DNA of 13,418 nucleotides from an archaeon. GTDB taxonomy: Archaea; Iainarchaeota; Iainarchaeia; Iainarchaeales; Iainarchaeaceae. The stretch is taken from assembly GCA_035289485.1 (NCBI GenBank), contig DATDXA010000052.1, positions 1 through 13,418 on the forward strand, in the 5' to 3' direction. The translations under genes and the position numbers were made by a program. Under the pieces are notes generated by a model that saw nothing but the letters and a program-made list of their open reading frames with translations, was not told the origin of the DNA and searched no databases. Positions 1,767 to 13,418 of this stretch are shown here, piece by piece. Position 1 is the first letter of the stretch. Each line of letters opens with the position of its first letter.

Positions 1767-1867
1767 GGAAGAGTGGCGCAGCCTGGTAGCGCACATGACT
1801 GATAACATCAGTAAAATGCAGTATGTCAGCAATCATGTGGTCGCAGGTTCAAATCCTGCCTCTTCCA
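1767..1867 (+). tRNA. tRNA-Ile (anticodon GAU) with a 27-nt intron at position 37/38 (intron 1805-1831)
   Basis: Acceptor stem GGAAGAG/CTCTTCC, D-arm GCGC..GCGC, anticodon stem CATGA/TCATG, CT-GAT-A, T-arm GCAGG-TTCAAAT-CCTGC. Canonical bulge-helix-bulge: CTGA (1799-1802)/TCAG (1826-1829) helix with 3-nt bulges TAA (1803-1805) and CAA (1830-1832). Confidence 0.95.
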
Positions 1868-1872
1868 TTTTA

Positions 1873-2991
1873 CTACGACAGATAAGAGTTAATCGCCCCC
1901 ATCAATTTTTTCTGCTTATCCAAGCCGATGAATCCGATTCGCTCATAAAATTTTATGAGGTTTTGTTTTCCGCTTATTTTTAATTCATAGTATTTTTCCT
2001 TGTAAGGGCCATGAAATTTGCATTCAATCTCAAAACACTTCAGCAGCTCAATCAATTCGAGCACGCCGTTCTTGTTTATCAGCATCATGCTTATCACTCG
2101 GTCTAGGTTTTTTCCATGAGGACTGAACACGACACTTCCCTCATCATCAAAGAAAGCCCGAAGGTAGCTAGCCTTGGCATTAGCATCCCCTGTTTTGACA
2201 AAATATGGAACTTCCCAGTCTATTGAGTAAAACTTTATGCCTCGAAGGAATTTTTTGACGCCTTTATTTGCAAACCCGGCACAATAAAGCCCTGGTTGCT
2301 TACAAGTCCGCCAAGGCTTTACTTTAAACAATTTCAGTGCAACATCAGAAAACTCGAATATTAAATGCAAATTCTGATTAGCGTAGGAAAATGTATTGGT
2401 ATTTTTGGGCTGGCAACCGTCCGCCTGCACATGCGCAATGAATTTTGCCAAGTTTTCACAAAAACCCGCACCGGCCTGATGTTCTATCGGATAATATTCT
2501 TCGACGGACTTCACACGAATTTTTTCTTTTGGCTGTTTCAGAAAGGTATGTATTATTCCATTTCTAATATCAGTTCTGTGTAAATTTTTGACACGCTTTA
2601 TTTCCCTTATTCTGGCGAAATAAGTAGCCCTTTCATCAATCAGGCTGGATGCCGCAAATCCGCCTTTTCTTGCACCCCAATTCAGCGGCATCTCTTTTTC
2701 TATGAATTTCTTAAATTCATTCGCGCTTTCATCGACAGATATGAGTTTTTGGAAAGTTGACAATCTGATATTGTTCTTTTCTGAAAAATAATCTCTCGCA
2801 GTGGTTTTTGAAACCTTGATTAGCCGCCCGAATGCAGTAATGCCAAGTGAGTGTCTCTGCATAAAATTTGCCAACAGTTCCCTCTGCTTCCCTTTCTGGA
2901 AAACGAGCCTTTTGTCCTCTATTCTCCCACCACAACAAGAACGGTTTTCCGGCTTAAAAGGAAACTGGGGGAGTTCGGTGCCGGTGCGCAT
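1873..2991 (-). CDS. Free-standing two-motif LAGLIDADG endonuclease-family protein with N-terminal HTH
   Basis: LAGLIDADG helices LAKFIAHVQADG and YLRAFFDDEGSV, C-terminal 'Y.LKISG..NL..FYE.IGF...KQ.KL' signature, and an N-terminal XRE-like HTH (GITAFGRLIKVSKTTARDY). No intein splice motifs. Start uncertain: GTG 3003, ATG 2991 (TAATG overlap) or ATA 2922. Confidence 0.88.
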   Translation of the reverse strand: MRTGTELPQFPFKPENRSCCGGRIEDKRLVFQKGKQRELLANFMQRHSLGITAFGRLIKVSKTTARDYFSEKNNIRLSTFQKLISVDESANEFKKFIEKEMPLNWGARKGGFAASSLIDERATYFARIREIKRVKNLHRTDIRNGIIHTFLKQPKEKIRVKSVEEYYPIEHQAGAGFCENLAKFIAHVQADGCQPKNTNTFSYANQNLHLIFEFSDVALKLFKVKPWRTCKQPGLYCAGFANKGVKKFLRGIKFYSIDWEVPYFVKTGDANAKASYLRAFFDDEGSVVFSPHGKNLDRVISMMLINKNGVLELIELLKCFEIECKFHGPYKEKYYELKISGKQNLIKFYERIGFIGLDKQKKLMGAINSYLS

Positions 2992-3140
2992 TAAAACCAC
3001 CACGCGAAAGAAATTCCTAGGAAAAAGCCGATTGTGCAGTTGAGAACAAAATCGGCTTGCTTTGGAAAACCAAAGAATTCCAGAATCGCAACGGAGTAAA
3101 TAATTCCTGCTCCAAGCAAAATGATTGAGAGAGGATTCAT
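2991..3140 (-). CDS. Small 49-aa two-TM membrane protein (not in ORF track)
   Basis: MNPLSIILLGAGIIYSVAILEFFGFPKQADFVLNCTIGFFLGISFAWWF*. GGAGG SD upstream, ATGA overlap with the upstream ORF, TAATG overlap with the LAGLIDADG ORF. Confidence 0.6.
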   Translation of the reverse strand: MNPLSIILLGAGIIYSVAILEFFGFPKQADFVLNCTIGFFLGISFAWWF

Positions 3141-3241
3141 TTTGAATCCTCCTTCATGTTCGCGAGTATTTGTGCGAATGTCCTGCCTTCTGCAAAAGGG
3201 CTTCCCCTCTGCGTTACTTTAGTTTGATAATGAAAACTCAT
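3137..3241 (-). CDS. Small 34-aa leader ORF (not in ORF track)
   Basis: MSFHYQTKVTQRGSPFAEGRTFAQILANMKEDSK*. Strong SD GGAGGTGA (3254-3247) just upstream of ATG 3241. Its stop overlaps the next ATG. Confidence 0.5.
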   Translation of the reverse strand: MSFHYQTKVTQRGSPFAEGRTFAQILANMKEDSK

Positions 3242-3481
3242 TCCAATCACCTCCAGCGCGGAAAACGAGTTTTTCCTAAAAAAAGCCGGTTACGGGCTTT
3301 GGGCGTATTAAATCCCTACAGCCCAAGCGACCCTTCCCAAGAAGGGGAAGGGTTTAAACGCACAAAGACCGAGGCTTTTGGAAAAACTCGGGGCTGGAGG
3401 TGGAAGGAGTTTCCATAGTTTAATGACCGGCACCTTAATAGAACCAAAAACCTATTTAATCGGAAGAATTACAATGGTTAC

Positions 3482-7232: not shown

Positions 7233-7850
7233 ATGGATTATTCTTGGATTGGACGAAATGCAGATTTAGGCATTAGCGCAGCAATAGAAATATCGGCTGT
7301 ATTGGCGTTTCTGAGTCTTTCATTTCCAGTTACCGGGGCTTTGGCATTTTTTATTTTGCTTAGGCTAATTACTTGGTCGTTTGAATACCTAAAGTTCTGT
7401 GCGTTTCTTTTTTCCACGGTGAATAATTCAAGCGAAATTCAAAATACATTTATACTTGGGTTACCAATGGTTTTCGTCGGACTTTGCTGGCTGTTTAACC
7501 TTGGAATTGCATCACTTTTTTATGCGGTTACTGGTAAAATGCAAAACTTAGTGGAAATTGTTTCACTCACACCAAAGGAACTTCACCTGCAACTTGCCGT
7601 CGGCATTATTTCAGGTTTAATTTTTCTATCTTTATTTTTCATACAAAAACGTTATCAGTCAAAAATGGATTTGAGCATTTTAATTTCGGCAATCTTGATG
7701 CCGTTCACTACACTTGCAATCATTTTGATACTTATTTTACCAAGCATATTTTTGGGACCTGCACAAATAACTGCAGCACTATTTTTTATTTTAATAGTTA
7801 CAGACAAACTTGCCCTCTACTGGTTCAGAAAAAAACAAAACCACAACTAG
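7233..7850 (+). CDS. Hypothetical multi-pass membrane protein
   Basis: 205-aa ORF with about 6 hydrophobic segments, followed by a terminator-like hairpin. Confidence 0.75.
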   Translation: MDYSWIGRNADLGISAAIEISAVLAFLSLSFPVTGALAFFILLRLITWSFEYLKFCAFLFSTVNNSSEIQNTFILGLPMVFVGLCWLFNLGIASLFYAVTGKMQNLVEIVSLTPKELHLQLAVGIISGLIFLSLFFIQKRYQSKMDLSILISAILMPFTTLAIILILILPSIFLGPAQITAALFFILIVTDKLALYWFRKKQNHN

Positions 7851-7880
7851 CCAAACCAACATTATTTGGTTTGGTTTTAT
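7851..7880 (+). terminator. Hairpin + T-tract terminator
   Basis: CCAAACCAA (7851-7859) and TTGGTTTGG (7866-7874) form a perfect 9-bp stem followed by TTTTAT, immediately after the stop codon. Confidence 0.6.
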
Positions 7881-8094
7881 CTTAAACTTTAAACCAACTT
7901 ACAAGACTGAAAATTGAAAATACAATCTCTCGTAAAGGGGTGTTCAACAAAAGAAATCCATGAACAACTCAACAAGTGACCTCAACATCAAGGAACGGCG
8001 AAAATGGCAAGATTAGTCAATTTTATAAATCAAAACAGGTACAACAGCGCCCCTAAACCCTCAAAACTAAGCCTTTTAAGGCAAAAACGCCAAA

Positions 8095-8622
8095 ATGGTA
8101 GGTATGCACTCAATACGCTTTTTGACGATTTTTGCAATATTGGGGGTTTTTGCACTACTTTTGGCAGGATGCACAGAACCGCAGTCAAGCAATGTGGATG
8201 TTTTCTTCTGCCCCCAGGACCAGTGCGAGGACCGCGCAGTTGCCGCCATAGGAGCTGCGCAGACTTCGGTTGATGTTGCAATGTACTCATTCACATCAAA
8301 AGAACTCTTCTCAGAGCTTGAAAAGGCATCCGCGCGCGGAGTGAGGGTAAGAGTTGTTGCAGATTATACGCAGTCGGCTGGCCAGAGCTCGGTTGTTCCC
8401 TGGCTTGATGGGAACGGGATTCCTGCAAGGGTTTATACAAAAAGCATAACCATGCACGACAAGTTCGCGGTAATAGACAACAAAATAGTTCTCACGGGGT
8501 CGTACAACTGGACAACAAATGGGGATGAGAGAAACCGCGAGAACCTCGCGATAATAACTGATAGCGCAATCGCGGAGCAGTACAGCGAGGAATTCTTCAG
8601 GCTCTGGGCGGAAGCGGATTAG
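8095..8622 (+). CDS. Phospholipase D-family single-HKD protein (Nuc-like nuclease/PLD), predicted lipoprotein
   Basis: HxKxxxxD...GSxN motif (HDKFAVIDNKIVLTGSYNWT), 'DVAMYSFT', 'RGVRVRVV', 'N.EN', and lipobox LAGC. Confidence 0.9.
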   Translation: MVGMHSIRFLTIFAILGVFALLLAGCTEPQSSNVDVFFCPQDQCEDRAVAAIGAAQTSVDVAMYSFTSKELFSELEKASARGVRVRVVADYTQSAGQSSVVPWLDGNGIPARVYTKSITMHDKFAVIDNKIVLTGSYNWTTNGDERNRENLAIITDSAIAEQYSEEFFRLWAEAD

Positions 8623-8652
8623 AAGCAAATTAACTAAAACCCACACTCGAAA

Positions 8653-10047
8653 TTATTTCATTTCTTCAAGTATTTTCTGCACCGCGCGCGCATCCGCCTT
8701 GCCTTTCATTTTGCGCATCACGGTTCCGATTAGAAAGTTCATGGATTTTGAATTTCCCGTTTTGAATTCGGTGAAAGCAGAAGCATTTTCCGCAACCGCT
8801 TCCTTGACCGCTTTTTCCAAATCGCCAGAAGACACATCAATTAGGAGTTTATTCTTCTCCAAAAATTCCTTAGGCTCAATTCCTTCAAGAGCGTACTTTA
8901 TGAGCGATTCTTTAGCGTTCTTGTCGCTGACCTTTCCGCCCTTTAGAAGAGCCACGAGAGCTGAAATCCCCTTTGCAGTTATTTTAGTGTCCGCAAGGCC
9001 TAAGGAATTATAGTTCAGAATCCCTAGCAGCTCTCTTGAAACAATCCTTGCTGCAATCTGCACATCAACTTTGGCAGCATCCTCAAAAATCTGGGCAATG
9101 TCTTTGTTCTGCGCGAGAACCTTTGCATCGTACTCCTTCAGGCCGAATTCACCCATGAAGCGCTTCGCTTTTTCTTCTGACATTTCAGGGAGTTCTTTCC
9201 TGATTTTTTCCAGCCAACTTGCATCAATTTGCGTTGGAACCAAATCCGCATCCACAATAAACCCATAATCCTCTTCGGATTCCTTTTTCCTCAAAGTATA
9301 GGTTGTTCCGCTTGCCTCATCAAAGCCGCGCGTTTCCATTTCAATTTTCCCGCCTTCAGTTATCACAGTTTTCTGCCGCTCCAATTCGTGCAGCAATACA
9401 AGCTCCACATTTTTTGTCCCGGTGACATTCTTGACCTCAACCCTTTCTCCGCCCTTGATTGAGATGTTGGTATCGGCCTTTATTACAAATTTGCCGGAAT
9501 TGAAAATTCCAAGATAATCGACAATTAGATTCAGCTTATCAAGAAATTCTTTTGCCTCTTCTTTTGAAGATATATCAGGTTCGGTCACAACTTCACAGAG
9601 AGGAACACCGGACCTATTGTAATCTACCAAGACATACATTGAACCGTGCATTCCTGATTCATGAACCAGTGCTCCGGGGTCTTCCTCAAGATGAACTCGT
9701 CTAATTTTGATTTTTTTGCCGCTGTCAAGTGCGATGAACCCATTATTCCCAAGCGGAGCGTCATACTGGCTTATCTGAAAATTTTTGGCGAGGTCCGGGT
9801 AAAAATATGTTTTTCTCGAAAAGACAATTTCTTTTTCAACCCGGCAATTTAGGGCAAGCGCCAATTTAATGGCATAATCAACGGCTTTTTTGTTTAGAAC
9901 TGGTTTGCTGCCTGGATGCCCAAGGCAAATGGGGCAGGTGGCAGTATTTGGCTCCGCATCTTTTTGGACAATTGGGCAACTGCAAAAGAGCTTACTCTCA
10001 CAGTCCAGAGGCAGATGTAATTCGAAGCCACAGATGAATTCTCCCAT
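8653..10047 (-). CDS. gatB: Asp/Glu-tRNA amidotransferase subunit B
   Basis: GFELH, SKLFC, CPICLGHPGSKPVLN, FSRKTYFYPDL.KNFQISQY, HLEEDPG, DYNRSGVPL.EVVTEP, and a C-terminal YqeY-like domain (FLIG.VMR.MKGKAD). At 464 aa it lacks the GatE insertion. Confidence 0.96.
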   Translation of the reverse strand: MGEFICGFELHLPLDCESKLFCSCPIVQKDAEPNTATCPICLGHPGSKPVLNKKAVDYAIKLALALNCRVEKEIVFSRKTYFYPDLAKNFQISQYDAPLGNNGFIALDSGKKIKIRRVHLEEDPGALVHESGMHGSMYVLVDYNRSGVPLCEVVTEPDISSKEEAKEFLDKLNLIVDYLGIFNSGKFVIKADTNISIKGGERVEVKNVTGTKNVELVLLHELERQKTVITEGGKIEMETRGFDEASGTTYTLRKKESEEDYGFIVDADLVPTQIDASWLEKIRKELPEMSEEKAKRFMGEFGLKEYDAKVLAQNKDIAQIFEDAAKVDVQIAARIVSRELLGILNYNSLGLADTKITAKGISALVALLKGGKVSDKNAKESLIKYALEGIEPKEFLEKNKLLIDVSSGDLEKAVKEAVAENASAFTEFKTGNSKSMNFLIGTVMRKMKGKADARAVQKILEEMK

Positions 10048-10074
10048 AGGAGAATATTGCCTGATTAGATTTAA

Positions 10075-11295
10075 TTAGCTTTTTATGCCGAAAACCCTGC
10101 CATTTCGCCATCCAATTCGCTTTACTTCAACTAGCCCCAACTCAAGAAGACCCTTTATTCGTCTACCTTGAAGGTTATACCCAATCAGTTGGTCTCTTAA
10201 GTTTCCGGTTCCGATGTTAAGCAGGTACCCAAGTTCTTTTATCGTAAGATCCTGTTTTCTAAGAAGCTTCAGAATTTCTGCTTTTGTATGCCCTCGGTGG
10301 CGGTTATACCATTTTCTATTTTTTAGAGTGAAATGTTTCAAAAAAGCCGCCTGCTTTGAAGGAATGACAAAATCGCCCATGTCTTCTTTTATCATATCAA
10401 AACTTTTAACGGAAATAATTGCTGACTTTTTGTAATTCTGGACTTGGTAACCAAGTTTTTTGCACAACCTACGAGACACCTCGGTAAGACATGATTTTGG
10501 CGAGAATAATATTTCGATTCCACCATCGCCTATCCTACCTTCGTCTATAATTATCGCCTTTAACAATTCAACAAGAAATGGCCTAGGGTAAGAAAATATT
10601 TGTTCTGGGAAAACTACTTTTCCAGTCCTGAAATCCAGTATTTGAAAATATTTTTTTAGTATTTTTGGGACAATTTTTGCAACAATTACCCTCCAATGCT
10701 TTTTCAAAATTGAGTGGTCTACATCCCCAAAAGACACTTTCAATTTTACAATGAAATTATCCATTGCCTCAGGACTTTTACTTATATAGCATGCATTTCC
10801 CTTCTCCCCACCATAGCCGTCAGATAAAAAATGCGCCAATACTGCAAACGTTTCGGGAATTATCTGCAAGGGCAATTGCGGTTTTATTATTATTCCGGCT
10901 CTTGAACTAGCCTTGATTTCTTGAACCTGATTTTGCAAGGAATTTATTTCCAAACCGAGTGCATAACAGAGTTTCTTTAAGCTAGTAATATGAATGAACC
11001 GATTTACTTTACCGTGCTTTTTCAGTTCAAAACCATTTTTCCACGAATATAAGCTGCTGCCCTTGATTTTGAGCTCTTTTCTAGCTAATCCAAGAGAGCC
11101 ATATTTTTCTTCCAATTGTGAAAAGATAATTTTTCTGGCATTTTTTTCAAGAAGAATGCAAGTATCTTCAGGAAAATCTGATAAGTTCAAATAATACAAT
11201 TCCCCACCATCACAAAAGTTGTTCTTGACAATATATTGCTCTTTGCAGGGAGTGCACTGCCGGTGCGAACCTGAAGAAGAGAGGCGATGCATCAT
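10075..11295 (-). CDS. Free-standing two-motif LAGLIDADG endonuclease-family protein with N-terminal HTH and C-terminal wHTH
   Basis: LAGLIDADG helices VLAHFLSDG and LLKAIIIDEGRI, N-terminal HTH (YGSLGLARKELKIKGSSLYSWKNG), and C-terminal ArsR-like wHTH (EILKLL...LTIKELGYLLNI....LR..L...L.ELGLVE). Start is ATG 11295 (ATGA overlap) or TTG 11199. Confidence 0.82.
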   Translation of the reverse strand: MMHRLSSSGSHRQCTPCKEQYIVKNNFCDGGELYYLNLSDFPEDTCILLEKNARKIIFSQLEEKYGSLGLARKELKIKGSSLYSWKNGFELKKHGKVNRFIHITSLKKLCYALGLEINSLQNQVQEIKASSRAGIIIKPQLPLQIIPETFAVLAHFLSDGYGGEKGNACYISKSPEAMDNFIVKLKVSFGDVDHSILKKHWRVIVAKIVPKILKKYFQILDFRTGKVVFPEQIFSYPRPFLVELLKAIIIDEGRIGDGGIEILFSPKSCLTEVSRRLCKKLGYQVQNYKKSAIISVKSFDMIKEDMGDFVIPSKQAAFLKHFTLKNRKWYNRHRGHTKAEILKLLRKQDLTIKELGYLLNIGTGNLRDQLIGYNLQGRRIKGLLELGLVEVKRIGWRNGRVFGIKS

Positions 11296-11640
11296 TCATC
11301 GCCTCCGAACTCTTGCAGAATCCACAGTTCCCTGTCTGTGAGTTCCTCTCCGTGCTCATAGGAGAGCATTGCATTTAGTATCTCCCTTCTGTTTGGGAGC
11401 TGAATATTTTCGATTTTCATGAGCCAACCACCTCCAAAGGGTTGAATTTTTTCGTGGACGTCTCTGCTGCTTTTGGAGGCATTAAATATTTAGGCTCAGC
11501 CGACCCATCCCAAGATGGGTAAATGTTTAAGCCGAGAAAAGCAGAGTCCTTCGAAAAAATTCCTTAGGGAGGTGGTTGTGGAAATTGCTTGCCAAAATGA
11601 ATTAACCGTATTTTACAAAGGGCTCTTTGTGTAATTGGCA
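11248..11640. ncRNA. Putative structured RNA / cis-element, copy 2 (LAGLIDADG-associated)
   Basis: Contains the 20-nt motif shared with 2969-2988, local hairpins (11281-11305, 11323-11340, 11346-11366, 11382-11399), and a long hairpin 11411-11587 with the same apex as copy 1. Confidence 0.55.
11292..11420 (-). CDS. Small 42-aa acidic leader ORF (not in ORF track)
   Basis: MKIENIQLPNRREILNAMLSYEHGEELTDRELWILQEFGGDE*. SD GGAGGTG (11435-11429) lies 8 nt upstream of ATG 11420. Its TGA overlaps ATG 11295 of the LAGLIDADG ORF. Confidence 0.55.
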   Translation of the reverse strand: MKIENIQLPNRREILNAMLSYEHGEELTDRELWILQEFGGDE

Positions 11641-11654
11641 AATAAGCCGAGTTA

Positions 11655-12524
11655 CTATGAAATTACTACTGTTTGTAGTATGATGAATATGACTATCCAA
11701 ATTAGTATTAGCGCAAATTCTAAAAACATTAAAATTTTTGCTAACAGCGCAGTTTTTGTTCCATCCACTTCAGGGGTTATATGTTTTAAGGCAAAGAAAC
11801 TCAGAATTGGCTGTAACAAAACAACGGCCATTAGCGCTATTGGCGCAAAAATTGTGAAAATGAAGGTAAGGATGTAGGCTAAAATCCACAGTGCGAGTTT
11901 TGCAATGTAGAATTTCTTTTTGGAAAATCCCTTTACTAAAATAGGTAATACCAAATAAGTTGCTGCTATCAGCAAAATCAATAAAAGCGAAAACAGAAAA
12001 CCCGCAAAGTTTGTGTTCCCTGCAACAGATGGGTTAAGTGCCGGTCCTGGTGTTGTATCTCCAAGCACAACCAAACAGGCTCTTTCGGTTTTTGTCAAAT
12101 CAAAGGCGCAATCGTTCTTCAAATCAACGAATTGAAAATTAGGGTTATTGTAAGATGAAAGATCACCTTCGAATTCATTCATGCGGTCGCAGATAACTGT
12201 AGTGCTGACACGATAATTTCCGAGAGGCTGGATTATCCTGCCTTTTTCAATGATTTTGAATGTGTTTTCTGTCTTATTTTTTCCAATCGAAATGCAAACT
12301 TGTTCACTTGATAGGACTTTCGAATTTTTTGCAATAATATATGAGGAAAGATTACTGTCACTGTAAACAACCGCATTTGAATCGTTTGGAATTCCAAGTT
12401 GGTTTATTGTCATTTTGATTTCGTTAGCAAAAAACTCATTCCCTCCAATTTGCGCTATTGGCGTTCCAAGAACAAACGAAAAAAGCAGTACAAGACAAAT
12501 TGAGAAATAAAGGTAATTTTTCAT
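11655..12524 (-). CDS. Hypothetical membrane protein (signal peptide, extracellular Cys-containing domain, 3-4 C-terminal TM helices)
   Basis: 289-aa ORF with an N-terminal signal, a soluble domain with 4 Cys, and a hydrophobic C-terminus. Confidence 0.78.
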   Translation of the reverse strand: MKNYLYFSICLVLLFSFVLGTPIAQIGGNEFFANEIKMTINQLGIPNDSNAVVYSDSNLSSYIIAKNSKVLSSEQVCISIGKNKTENTFKIIEKGRIIQPLGNYRVSTTVICDRMNEFEGDLSSYNNPNFQFVDLKNDCAFDLTKTERACLVVLGDTTPGPALNPSVAGNTNFAGFLFSLLLILLIAATYLVLPILVKGFSKKKFYIAKLALWILAYILTFIFTIFAPIALMAVVLLQPILSFFALKHITPEVDGTKTALLAKILMFLEFALILIWIVIFIILQTVVIS

Positions 12525-12586
12525 GTAATTAGTATCAATTCCCAGAAGTTAATACTTTCCATAGGCACTAGGCGACAATTAACCAT

Positions 12587-13354
12587 TCAAACCCTCTCCA
12601 GATGCTTCAAAATGCCTTCGTGCAAAACCTTGTTCGTTGCAAGGAAATGCCCAGAATTTAACCCGGCTTCCTCGCCATTTATGTCAGTTACCCTTCCGCC
12701 CGCTTCGCGAACTATTAGCATTGCCGCGGCTACATCCCAGGGCTTCAAATCATACTCAAAAAACCCGTCGCAAATCCCATGCGCAACAAAGCACATATCC
12801 AAGGAAGCCGACCCAAATCGCCTAATATCCTGGCAGTTGTCCCTTAGGGCAATTATTGATTTGTAGGTCTTCTCCTTGAGGCTCTCACTTTCATAAGGAA
12901 AGCCGCTCACAAGAAGCGATTGCAGCATATCCGAAGTTTTGGAAACGTGAATCTTGTTCTTGTTAAGGAACGCGCCTTTGCCAAGCTGCGCGGAGTACAA
13001 ATTCTTTGTAACGGGGTTGTATACGCAGCCGCACTGCACAATCCCATTTTTTACAAATGCCACCGAAACAGCGAACTGCTCAACTCCGTGGAAGAAATTC
13101 GTGGTCCCGTCAATCGGGTCAATTACCCAGAGGTTTTGCTGATCGCCATGCATTCCGCCTTCCTCTCCTAAAAATCCGTGCGAAGGGAAATCATTTGCAA
13201 TCACTGCCCTGATTTTCTTTTCGCACTCAACATCGGCCTTTGTAACAATGCTGCGGTCGCTTTTGAAATCGGCTCCGATGCCTGTTCTGAAATATTTCAT
13301 CGCAATATCCCCTGCGCGGATGCATGCAAGCTTTGCGGTTTCGATTTCGTTCAT
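12587..13354 (-). CDS. suhB: Inositol monophosphatase family protein (IMPase/FBPase)
   Basis: Motifs VTKAD..CE, GEE, WVIDPIDGTTNF, RRFGSASLD.C.VA.G..DGF.E..LKPWDVAA..LIV.EAGG. GGAGG SD upstream. Confidence 0.93.
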   Translation of the reverse strand: MNEIETAKLACIRAGDIAMKYFRTGIGADFKSDRSIVTKADVECEKKIRAVIANDFPSHGFLGEEGGMHGDQQNLWVIDPIDGTTNFFHGVEQFAVSVAFVKNGIVQCGCVYNPVTKNLYSAQLGKGAFLNKNKIHVSKTSDMLQSLLVSGFPYESESLKEKTYKSIIALRDNCQDIRRFGSASLDMCFVAHGICDGFFEYDLKPWDVAAAMLIVREAGGRVTDINGEEAGLNSGHFLATNKVLHEGILKHLERV

Positions 13355-13416
13355 TTCAGCGCCTCCATCACAACAGTTCCGGCTGTTGGGTACGGATGTC
13401 CCGTCTGCGACGGGAC
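13351..13416 (-). CDS. Possible 3' end of an upstream ORF truncated by the window edge
   Basis: Open frame ...VPSQTGHPYPTAGTVVMEALK* ends in an ATGA overlap with suhB. Too short to identify. Confidence 0.35.
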   Translation of the reverse strand, partial: VPSQTGHPYPTAGTVVMEALK

Positions 13417-13418
13417 GC

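Follow-up and report, generated by a model that had tools for sequence, protein, structure and literature searches.

Hairpin and gene cassette between IMPase and gatB

The 13,418-nt contig DATDXA010000052.1 of the Iainarchaeota assembly GCA_035289485.1 (the window, analyzed over its whole length) contains a long imperfect hairpin between its inositol monophosphatase (IMPase) and gatB genes. The gene-sense strand of this element is the minus strand of the window. In this direction, the hairpin is followed by a short leader open reading frame (ORF) and by a gene for a divergent 406-aa LAGLIDADG-like protein. The same three parts lie between IMPase and gatB in a relative (G001), and in this genome (G000) the interval holds an additional 289-aa gene. 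We refer to this hairpin as copy 2. Copy 1 belongs to a second sequence subfamily and heads another cassette in the window (Table 1).

Table 1. Features of the two hairpin copies and their cassettes (window positions)
Feature	Coordinates	Strand	Basis or remark
Whole hairpin element, copy 2	11411-11587	minus	folding z-scores and covariance model
Outer helix	11411-11419/11579-11587		two G-T wobbles on the plus strand
Perfect 11-bp helix	11425-11435/11568-11578		includes the complement of the Shine–Dalgarno (SD) sequence
Helix of the T6/A6 block	11444-11454/11552-11562
Short helix			GGAC with GTCC
Helix	11467-11474/11537-11544
TTAAA helix	11482-11486/11526-11530
Apical stem	11503-11520		7 bp, 4-nt loop
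Anti-SD CCACCTCC in the distal (5') arm	11568-11575	minus	pairs with the SD (11429-11435); helix covaries over 66 distinct copies
T6 run, candidate oligo-T terminator of the 289-aa gene ending at 11655	11554-11559	minus	meets a polymerase entering from upstream
Mirror TATA-like box TTTAAG with AAAGG-type B recognition element (BRE), outward, weak	11525-11531	plus	position weight matrix (PWM) score
Variable apex: 7-bp stem with 4-nt loop (11503-11520) and mini-hairpin (11493-11501)	11491-11520	minus
BRE-like A-rich stretch and TATA box TTTAAT (11481-11486), predicted cassette promoter	11481-11492	minus	points to the leader ORF
Predicted transcription start	11455-11459	minus	from spacing, 27-31 nt past the first T of the TATA box
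A6 of the leader (T6 on the plus strand)	11447-11452	minus	met by a polymerase from the gene side; near-invariant pairs
SD GGAGGTG	11429-11435	minus	8 nt before the start codon (11418-11420)
Leader ORF of family A, 42 aa, C-terminal ..TDRELWIL.EFGGD	11292-11420	minus	stop overlaps the ATG of the next gene
406-aa divergent LAGLIDADG-like gene ("nuclease gene")	10075-11295	minus	profile–profile match
TATA-like box over the endonuclease stop codon (10075-10077)	10069-10077	minus	27 nt before the gatB ATG (10045-10047)
Copy 1 of the element, second sequence subfamily	3228-3419	minus	177.1 bits
Copy 1 cassette	1873-3241	minus	leader ORF of family B (3137-3241), 49-aa membrane ORF (2991-3140), LAGLIDADG_3 gene (1873-3003)

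Inspection of copy 2 showed that all pairings listed in the initial annotation, including the two plus-strand wobbles, are present in the sequence. Read in gene sense, the distal arm carries the anti-SD, T6, a covarying stem, and a near-invariant block ending in TTAAAC. The variable apex is followed in the proximal arm by an AAAGG-type BRE with TTTAAT, about 30 conserved nt up to and including GTCCACG, A6, the SD, and the ATG.

Folding of positions 11400-11600 yielded -77.1 kcal/mol (z = -6.23) for the plus strand and -65.0 kcal/mol (z = -4.51) for the minus strand, and none of 200 dinucleotide shuffles folded as well in either case. For copy 1 (3220-3425), the z values of the two strands were -8.23 and -7.51. 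The architecture recurs in this genome and in its relatives. It is thus confirmed that the hairpin at 11411-11587 is real and not a chance palindrome. An Rfam cmscan search of the whole window (E ≤ 1) gave no family at 3228-3419 or 11409-11594; it returned only two tRNAs and one weak snoRNA-like match.

Distribution, covariation, and gene linkage of the element

Further copies were sought with BLASTN and with R1, a covariance model made from the gene-sense strands of five copies. For copy 2, R1 scored 170.6 bits in gene sense (11409-11594, minus strand) and 34.9 bits on the opposite strand. The same difference was found across the family, with 74-181 bits for the forward and 23-47 bits for the reverse strand of the same loci. 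The element, palindromic as it is, is nevertheless polar. This genome (1.16 Mb, 64 contigs) contains five full copies and two that are cut by contig ends (C20 end, C27 start). R1 matched in 40 of 101 relatives and in 61 of 151 genomes sampled across the phylum Iainarchaeota (DPANN), with a highest total of 10 matches per genome. Every listed genome with a match belongs to the same order or is closer, and the 11 genomes of families f33-f37 had none. Both assemblies and unitigs break within hairpin copies (C20 end, C27 start, and 11458-11487 in copy 2), so the copy numbers of draft genomes are lower bounds. In the DNA contigs of four sequencing runs over 8600-13418, unitigs ended inside the hairpin at 11458-11487, and a 1-nt deletion variant was present at 11464. 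No RNA run containing positions 10078-11700 was listed.

An exact pattern of two core motifs gave 44 loci in a species-representative genome collection. Nearly all of these are titled Candidatus Iainarchaeum or "archaeon", and they include the complete genome CP010424.1. A few element-bearing contigs (loci L045, L049, L055, L059, L068, L069, and L072) occur in metagenome-assembled genomes labelled Falkowbacteria, Peregrinibacteria, or Chloroflexi; these labels are probably due to mis-binning. IMG/VR contained no match to the strict core pattern and none to a looser one. A putative class of core-only elements was rejected, since the partial matches (G096:C4, G069:C106, G132:C35, and C27 of this genome) are contig-cut or diverged copies. 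Solo proximal arms, sought in the relatives with a 16-mer and at most one mismatch, were also discarded: the extra sites were SD/start regions on the opposite strand or coding sequence. Literature searches by title and abstract (Iainarchaeota/DPANN, LAGLIDADG, homing endonuclease, palindrome/hairpin) found no paper on the element.

The covariation of the arms was evaluated on 66 distinct copies out of 78 matches. Paired cells amounted to 91.2% as compared with 81.9% in shuffles, and double changes occurred in 38 of 48 pairs, as compared with 19.1. The covariation score was 0.225 against a shuffle value of 0.092, and none of 500 shuffles reached the observed value; the alignment is fitted to the covariance model, which favors structure, and the margin over the shuffles is large. 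Sliding the partner by 1-3 columns reduced the score to 0.056 or less. The T6/A6 and TTAAA/TTTAA pairs were nearly invariant (63-66 of 66 copies), with the T6 pairs among the least variable of the family (63-65 of 66). The arms are imperfect mirror images, and the deviations themselves are kept throughout the order, namely additional bases near the TATA box, an internal loop rich in pyrimidines, and a proximal arm longer by about 6 nt. The apex occurs in several unrelated sequence types of 21-52 nt. We found no conserved unpaired core or junction that could serve as a riboswitch-type pocket, as the apex, the only large unpaired part, varies.

The element is tightly linked to genes. A complete ORF of 32-61 aa begins 4-12 nt past the SD in 31 of 34 copies; of the exceptions, one is cut by a contig end and two are fused to the long ORF. 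The stop codon of this leader ORF often overlaps the next ATG. Leader family A (22 copies) has the pattern ..PSxEEI..ELTDRELWIL.EFGGD, and family B (nine copies and a contig-cut one) has MSF.YQTKVSQRGNPF... Among 1.84 billion proteins, family A was found in 86 cluster representatives, all with 25-92 aa. It gave no credible Pfam match, only a sub-threshold hit to crAss001_48 in two of 21 members, and neither the family A nor the family B leader ORF of the window matched NCBIfam.

The genes behind the leader ORFs belong largely to one group. PF14528 (LAGLIDADG_3) was detected in 18 of 33 downstream proteins at E ≤ 0.01, for 17 of them above the cut-off of Pfam, and 27 of the 33 form one LAGLIDADG cluster linked by BLASTP. 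Many carry N-terminal helix–turn–helix (HTH) domains, and one is ArdC-like. The LAGLIDADG_3 protein of the copy 1 cassette has 372-376 aa. The 406-aa protein of copy 2 had no sequence match in Pfam, NCBIfam, or PDB. Profile–profile comparison aligned it with the hairpin-linked LAGLIDADG family (82% probability, E = 1e-05, 251 columns), with its segments ..FLSDG.. and ..IDEG.. in register with the two LAGLIDADG motifs. By match to the family profile, the top five genes of this genome are precisely those linked to hairpins, and eleven weaker LAGLIDADG matches, in free-standing genes or inteins, have no hairpin.

Some cassettes deviate from this order. In a variant (L037, L130, and G000:C20:24587-24790), the hairpin and leader ORF B are followed by a small protein and not by an endonuclease; in the C20 copy it has 67 aa, with the pattern MKVKEI..VSQK..NF.SK.F.LS. 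In the L041 cassette, the gene combines ArdC_N with an M78 peptidase. Endonuclease genes are therefore not the only mobile genes that the module serves. In copy 1, the hydrophobic 49-aa ORF between leader ORF B and the LAGLIDADG gene ends in ..WWF, and inspection by eye showed comparable small membrane ORFs in some relatives (loci L023 and L034).

The IMPase–gatB boundary (8653-13354 in the window) was compared with that of 20 family relatives (loci L087-L107). In 12 of them, gatB starts directly at the IMPase stop codon or overlaps it, and the empty sites carry no hairpin. Relative G008 retains a remnant that consists only of the distal arm and the cassette tail. G003 has a different small insertion at this boundary. 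The aligned loci describe the cassette as an insertion with presence/absence polymorphism at a conserved host site. The DNA contigs of the four runs contained none joining across the cassette, i.e., no empty site. The cassette tail with its TATA-like box is retained both in G001 and in the G008 remnant. This tail appears to provide gatB with a leaderless promoter, the host gene being cut off from its operon.

These data bear on whether the element is an independent palindromic repeat, akin to a miniature inverted-repeat transposable element, or a functionless decaying relic that merely lies near these genes. Its multi-copy, palindromic nature and the assembly breaks in its copies would agree with such a repeat. 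However, of 43 exact matches to the proximal-arm core, 40 are part of full elements and three are unrelated sequence. The copies have a fixed orientation and stand at a fixed distance from the SD, leader ORF, and gene, and the core is much better conserved than the downstream proteins, which are 13-43% identical to the first of their set. Together with the lack of a hairpin at empty IMPase–gatB sites, these findings make a repeat or relic very improbable.

Two further observations concern other non-coding RNAs of the window. A tRNA gene (1767-1867, plus strand) whose anticodon loop is interrupted by a 28-nt intron scored 61 bits with Rfam and was not detected by ARAGORN. The endonuclease gene of copy 1 ends 6 nt away from it, and the intron marks the organism as an archaeon. 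An intergenic match to the C/D-box RNA SNORD51 (7817-7892, minus strand) reached 29.9 bits, below the gathering score (E = 0.085), and may be an archaeal C/D sRNA or a chance match.

Promoter, terminator, and Shine–Dalgarno signals

The 702 long ORFs of this genome point to a mostly leaderless organism. TATA-like hexamers at -40 to -26 from the ATG numbered 66, 80, and 164 per 5-nt bin versus 8-44 elsewhere, and SD-like pentamers were few upstream of the ORFs. The TATA-to-ATG spacing of leaderless genes peaked at -30 to -26. The consensus of 179 leaderless promoters consists of an A-rich stretch at -6 to -4, two free bases, and TTTAAA(A/T). The two hexamers of copy 2 are enriched in the promoter window (-37 to -27) of genes, TTTAAT 4.4-fold and TTTAAG 7.2-fold.

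Scored outward with the full-site PWM, the proximal arm gave 8.0 (65 copies), as compared with 8.83 for real promoters and 4.85 for all TTTAA sites; inward, it gave 2.27. From this fit, the proximal arm is predicted to be a promoter toward the leader ORF. Most of 62 copies have 20-24 nt between the predicted start and the SD, and the consensus predicts that the cassette's own mRNA starts inside the hairpin and runs outward. A crude call of neighbor orientation (stop-to-stop frames of at least 110 aa) gave a divergent upstream neighbor in 36 of 62 copies, where an internal promoter is needed because no host gene reads in. In the distal arm, the BRE also pointed outward (BRE-only PWM +1.80 versus -1.0 inward), but the full-site score of 3.35 fell under the mean of all TTTAA sites. 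The mirror promoter does not fit neatly, since 13 of 23 divergent neighbors have their own TATA box and it is left without an obvious client. We therefore rejected the idea that the mirror arm expresses a divergent host gene; the mirrored SD on that side opens no real ORF either.

In 46 of 64 copies, the endonuclease body is separated from the leader ORF by a second conserved box. It reads CACCGG(C/A)A .. CAAAG NN TTTAAAAG and lies at 11230-11265 (minus strand, TATA-like part 11230-11237) in copy 2 and at about 2966-2985 in copy 1. Past its TATA-like part, at a distance of 22-37 nt, 21 of 64 copies have an ATG that begins an ORF of 150 aa or longer. This suggests that the box is a second promoter, of the leaderless type, for a shorter isoform of the endonuclease. 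The ATG of copy 2 is out of frame. Elsewhere, translation of the box gives an N-terminal ..APA.. peptide.

The fit of both outward promoters bears on a suggestion of the initial annotation, according to which two divergent TTTAA promoters flank a palindromic operator. The arms fit the promoter consensus of this genome, the proximal one well and the distal one weakly; a conserved operator was not found, as the apex between the boxes is variable. A related explanation is autoregulation by the HTH domains of the endonuclease or by the leader protein. Bound to the palindrome or to its apex, they would repress the promoter in the manner of I-TevI. The HTH domains of many downstream proteins and the location of the apex between two BRE/TATA boxes would suit this, as would the repression by I-TevI of its own late promoter, described in passages of PMC2988022. 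On the other hand, the apex types do not track the endonuclease type: copy 2 and L014, for example, share an apex and precede genes for unrelated proteins. The conserved blocks also far exceed the length of one operator, and we regard autoregulation as having only an outside chance.

In archaea, oligo-T tracts serve as transcription termination signals. In this genome, runs of T5 or longer numbered 158 in the first 25 nt past stop codons versus 43-58 per bin inside genes, which fits oligo-T termination. The first such run past the upstream 289-aa gene is the T6 of the distal arm. As in oligo-T terminators, a T6 on the transcribed strand meets a polymerase arriving from either side of the element. 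Oligo-T termination alone, however, needs neither a 180-nt palindrome nor an anti-SD.

To evaluate the pairing of the SD, we compared the predicted own transcript with a modelled read-through RNA starting 30 nt upstream of the element. The unpaired probability of the SD, calculated over 62 copies, was 0.53 in the own transcript and 0.037 in the read-through RNA, where it stayed below 0.1 for 53 copies. For copy 2, the values were 0.43 and 0.00. The SD is mirrored on the other strand in 55 of 63 copies, followed in 48 of these by no ORF or one of at most 25 codons, and in the other seven by ORFs of 42-112 codons. Since no real ORF follows, this stretch appears to be kept as a complement and not as a start site. 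The initial annotation had considered a minus-strand leader in which a CACCUCC arm masks the SD. We found this pairing to be conserved, covarying, and effective in the folding model, but only for RNA entering from upstream.

With the above results in hand, we tentatively favor, at somewhat less than an even chance, a reading in which the hairpin is the portable 5' control module of a mobile homing-endonuclease cassette, similar to those of T4 and composed of archaeal parts. The cassette would consist of the hairpin, the leader ORF, a LAGLIDADG/HTH gene, and an outgoing promoter for the displaced host gene. We infer that the promoter of the proximal arm fires outward from about 11455-11459 (minus strand) and yields an mRNA with a leader of about 35 nt and a free SD. 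A polymerase that enters from upstream would transcribe the anti-SD and then meet the T6 about 35 nt into the element, where most transcripts would end. The residual read-through RNA would hold both arms and fold into the long hairpin. The SD would thus be buried, preventing the translation of endonuclease from host messages. The promoter would be mirrored in the distal arm because joining the anti-SD and SD takes a paired stem in place of a loop exceeding 100 nt.

RNA-level and DNA-level explanations

Several results weigh against this control-module reading. The anti-SD arm is preserved equally beside divergent (10.06/14) and co-directional (10.04/14) neighbors, which would be unexpected if silencing of read-through were its sole role, since nothing should read in at divergent settings. 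For the start codon, pairing does not increase in the read-through RNA, where its unpaired probability is 0.44 as compared with 0.29 in the short transcript. At either entrance, the near-invariant T6 should end most transcripts before they include both arms, and the start sites of the copies were predicted from the promoter consensus only.

The strand comparison was similarly unfavorable. An arm-to-arm alignment of 65 distinct copies gave 107 G-U pairs in sense and 102 in antisense; 27 copies favored the sense strand, 22 favored the antisense strand, and 16 were tied. The covariance-model columns gave 58 and 62, respectively. This equality of G-U and A-C counts is unfavorable because a one-strand RNA helix would usually tolerate G-U more, although in a very long helix single mismatches of either type may be nearly neutral, which would blunt the argument. 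The mismatches were strongly polar: in gene sense, pyrimidine–pyrimidine outnumbered purine–purine ones (604 versus 122), with an excess in 65 of 65 copies. The antisense strand was computed as the more stable one in 55 of 64 copies (-68.2 versus -63.1 kcal/mol), because its mismatches are purine–purine.

The polarity raises the question of whether the functional fold is formed by the antisense (plus) strand, as a structured or cis-antisense RNA running back over the leader ORF and the SD. The initial annotation had leaned toward a plus-strand RNA from the wobbles of copy 2, which are indeed mostly G-U on the plus strand (four versus one). This argument does not hold across the family, where the G-U counts are strand-neutral, so the proposal is left weakened, with the mismatch polarity and the stability still on its side. 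Purine–purine mismatches are the usual make-up of internal loops in structured RNAs. The conserved TATA-like box past the leader ORF could in principle fire backwards to produce such an RNA, but in the copies inspected its A-rich BRE is on the sense side, and in 21 of 64 copies it is followed by the in-frame ATG described above. For these two reasons, the box looks like a sense promoter. The plus-strand RNA would also meet a T6 on entering the element, it matches no Rfam family, and its apex is not conserved. An antisense fold is thus quite improbable.

The main rival reading places the function at the level of DNA or of both strands. In this explanation, the element is an insulator, i.e., a symmetric terminator–promoter block that isolates the cassette from neighboring transcription in both directions. 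The complementarity would then be kept by DNA processes, such as template switching at the quasi-palindrome or the formation of cruciforms and single-strand hairpins, and not by an RNA fold. An element that works as a duplex or through both strands should have strand-neutral G-U and A-C mismatches, as is the case here. Variation is lowest in the pairs of the T6/A6 and TATA blocks, the BRE consensus fits outward in both arms, and the distal arm is kept equally in divergent and co-directional settings. The T5+ runs at gene ends in this genome are consistent with the terminator half of such a block. However, the complementarity continues beyond the T6 to the SD and its variable flanks and covaries there (helix 1), which an insulator leaves unexplained. 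The mirror promoter is weak and has no evident client. The order-wide conservation of the arm asymmetries (the bulges and the 6-nt proximal insert) indicates that the arms are not simply homogenized, and the strong mismatch polarity is not predicted. We consider this explanation rather unlikely.

A more specific form of the same idea is that the palindrome acts as DNA, or on both strands, as a self-contained and orientation-independent transcriptional insulator of selfish genes; this we hold to be distinctly unlikely. The firing of the two back-to-back outward promoters inside the 180-bp quasi-palindrome would cause negative supercoiling, and this, or single-stranded DNA formed in homing repair, could extrude the hairpin. 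The extrusion would hide both TATA boxes and render the expression of the cassette self-limiting. The purine–purine polarity of the mismatches and the strand-neutral G-U would then be signatures of the extruded structure.

The control-module reading can be compared with documented systems, as described in passages of two papers. According to PMC2988022, the endonuclease genes I-TevI, I-TevII, I-TevIII, and segB of T4 and mobE of Aeh1 carry a hairpin that sequesters the ribosome binding site and forms only on upstream transcripts. The phage promoter is placed such that the gene's own transcripts escape the inhibitory arm, and host-gene promoters are embedded in the endonuclease genes of T4. Dassa et al. 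(2009, PMC2677866) describe similar hairpins at the "fractured genes" of marine metagenomes. Control of this kind is thus documented in these sources for T-even phages and for marine fractured genes.

Like the T-even hairpins, the element immediately precedes a free-standing cassette for a homing endonuclease. An upstream complementary segment pairs with the SD through 11 perfect, covarying pairs. The promoter, predicted here, is within the paired region, so that own transcripts would escape the inhibitory arm. The predicted promoter for the displaced downstream host gene also has its T-even counterpart. In contrast to the phage systems as presented in PMC2988022, the host is an archaeon and the promoter is of BRE/TATA type and not a T4 late promoter. 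The arms of about 80 nt replace short phage stems, the entire promoter is mirrored in the other arm, oligo-T runs stand at both entrances, and a conserved small leader ORF separates the hairpin from the endonuclease. The element is conserved across a whole archaeal order, with up to 10 copies per genome.

The likeness to the marine fractured genes lies in conserved 5' hairpins before free-standing endonuclease genes at many insertion sites, in a promoter element within the hairpin, and in hairpins kept where the endonuclease is lost, as in the G008 remnant. The marine loci, as characterized in PMC2677866, are of phage type, with the T4/Aeh1 late promoter TATAAATA and with Vsr-like or GIY-YIG enzymes inside split inteins. 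Here, we found LAGLIDADG/HTH enzymes, an archaeal promoter, and insertion sites that are mostly intergenic among those seen.

If the control-module reading is true, selfish endonuclease genes of archaea and of phage T4 would have arrived at the same solution, in which the gene's own promoter sits in the very hairpin that silences its translation from host messages. In Iainarchaeota, this solution would be made of archaeal parts (BRE/TATA and oligo-T) in a mostly leaderless genome. The element is among the best-conserved non-coding sequences of the phylum, with hundreds of copies, and is a ready metagenome marker for these cassettes. In DPANN archaea, it lends itself naturally to tests of oligo-T termination and of SD-dependent translation control, and it would give archaeal genetics a compact, portable promoter/insulator part. 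Its strand asymmetries make it a useful case for telling RNA-level from DNA-level selection on palindromes.

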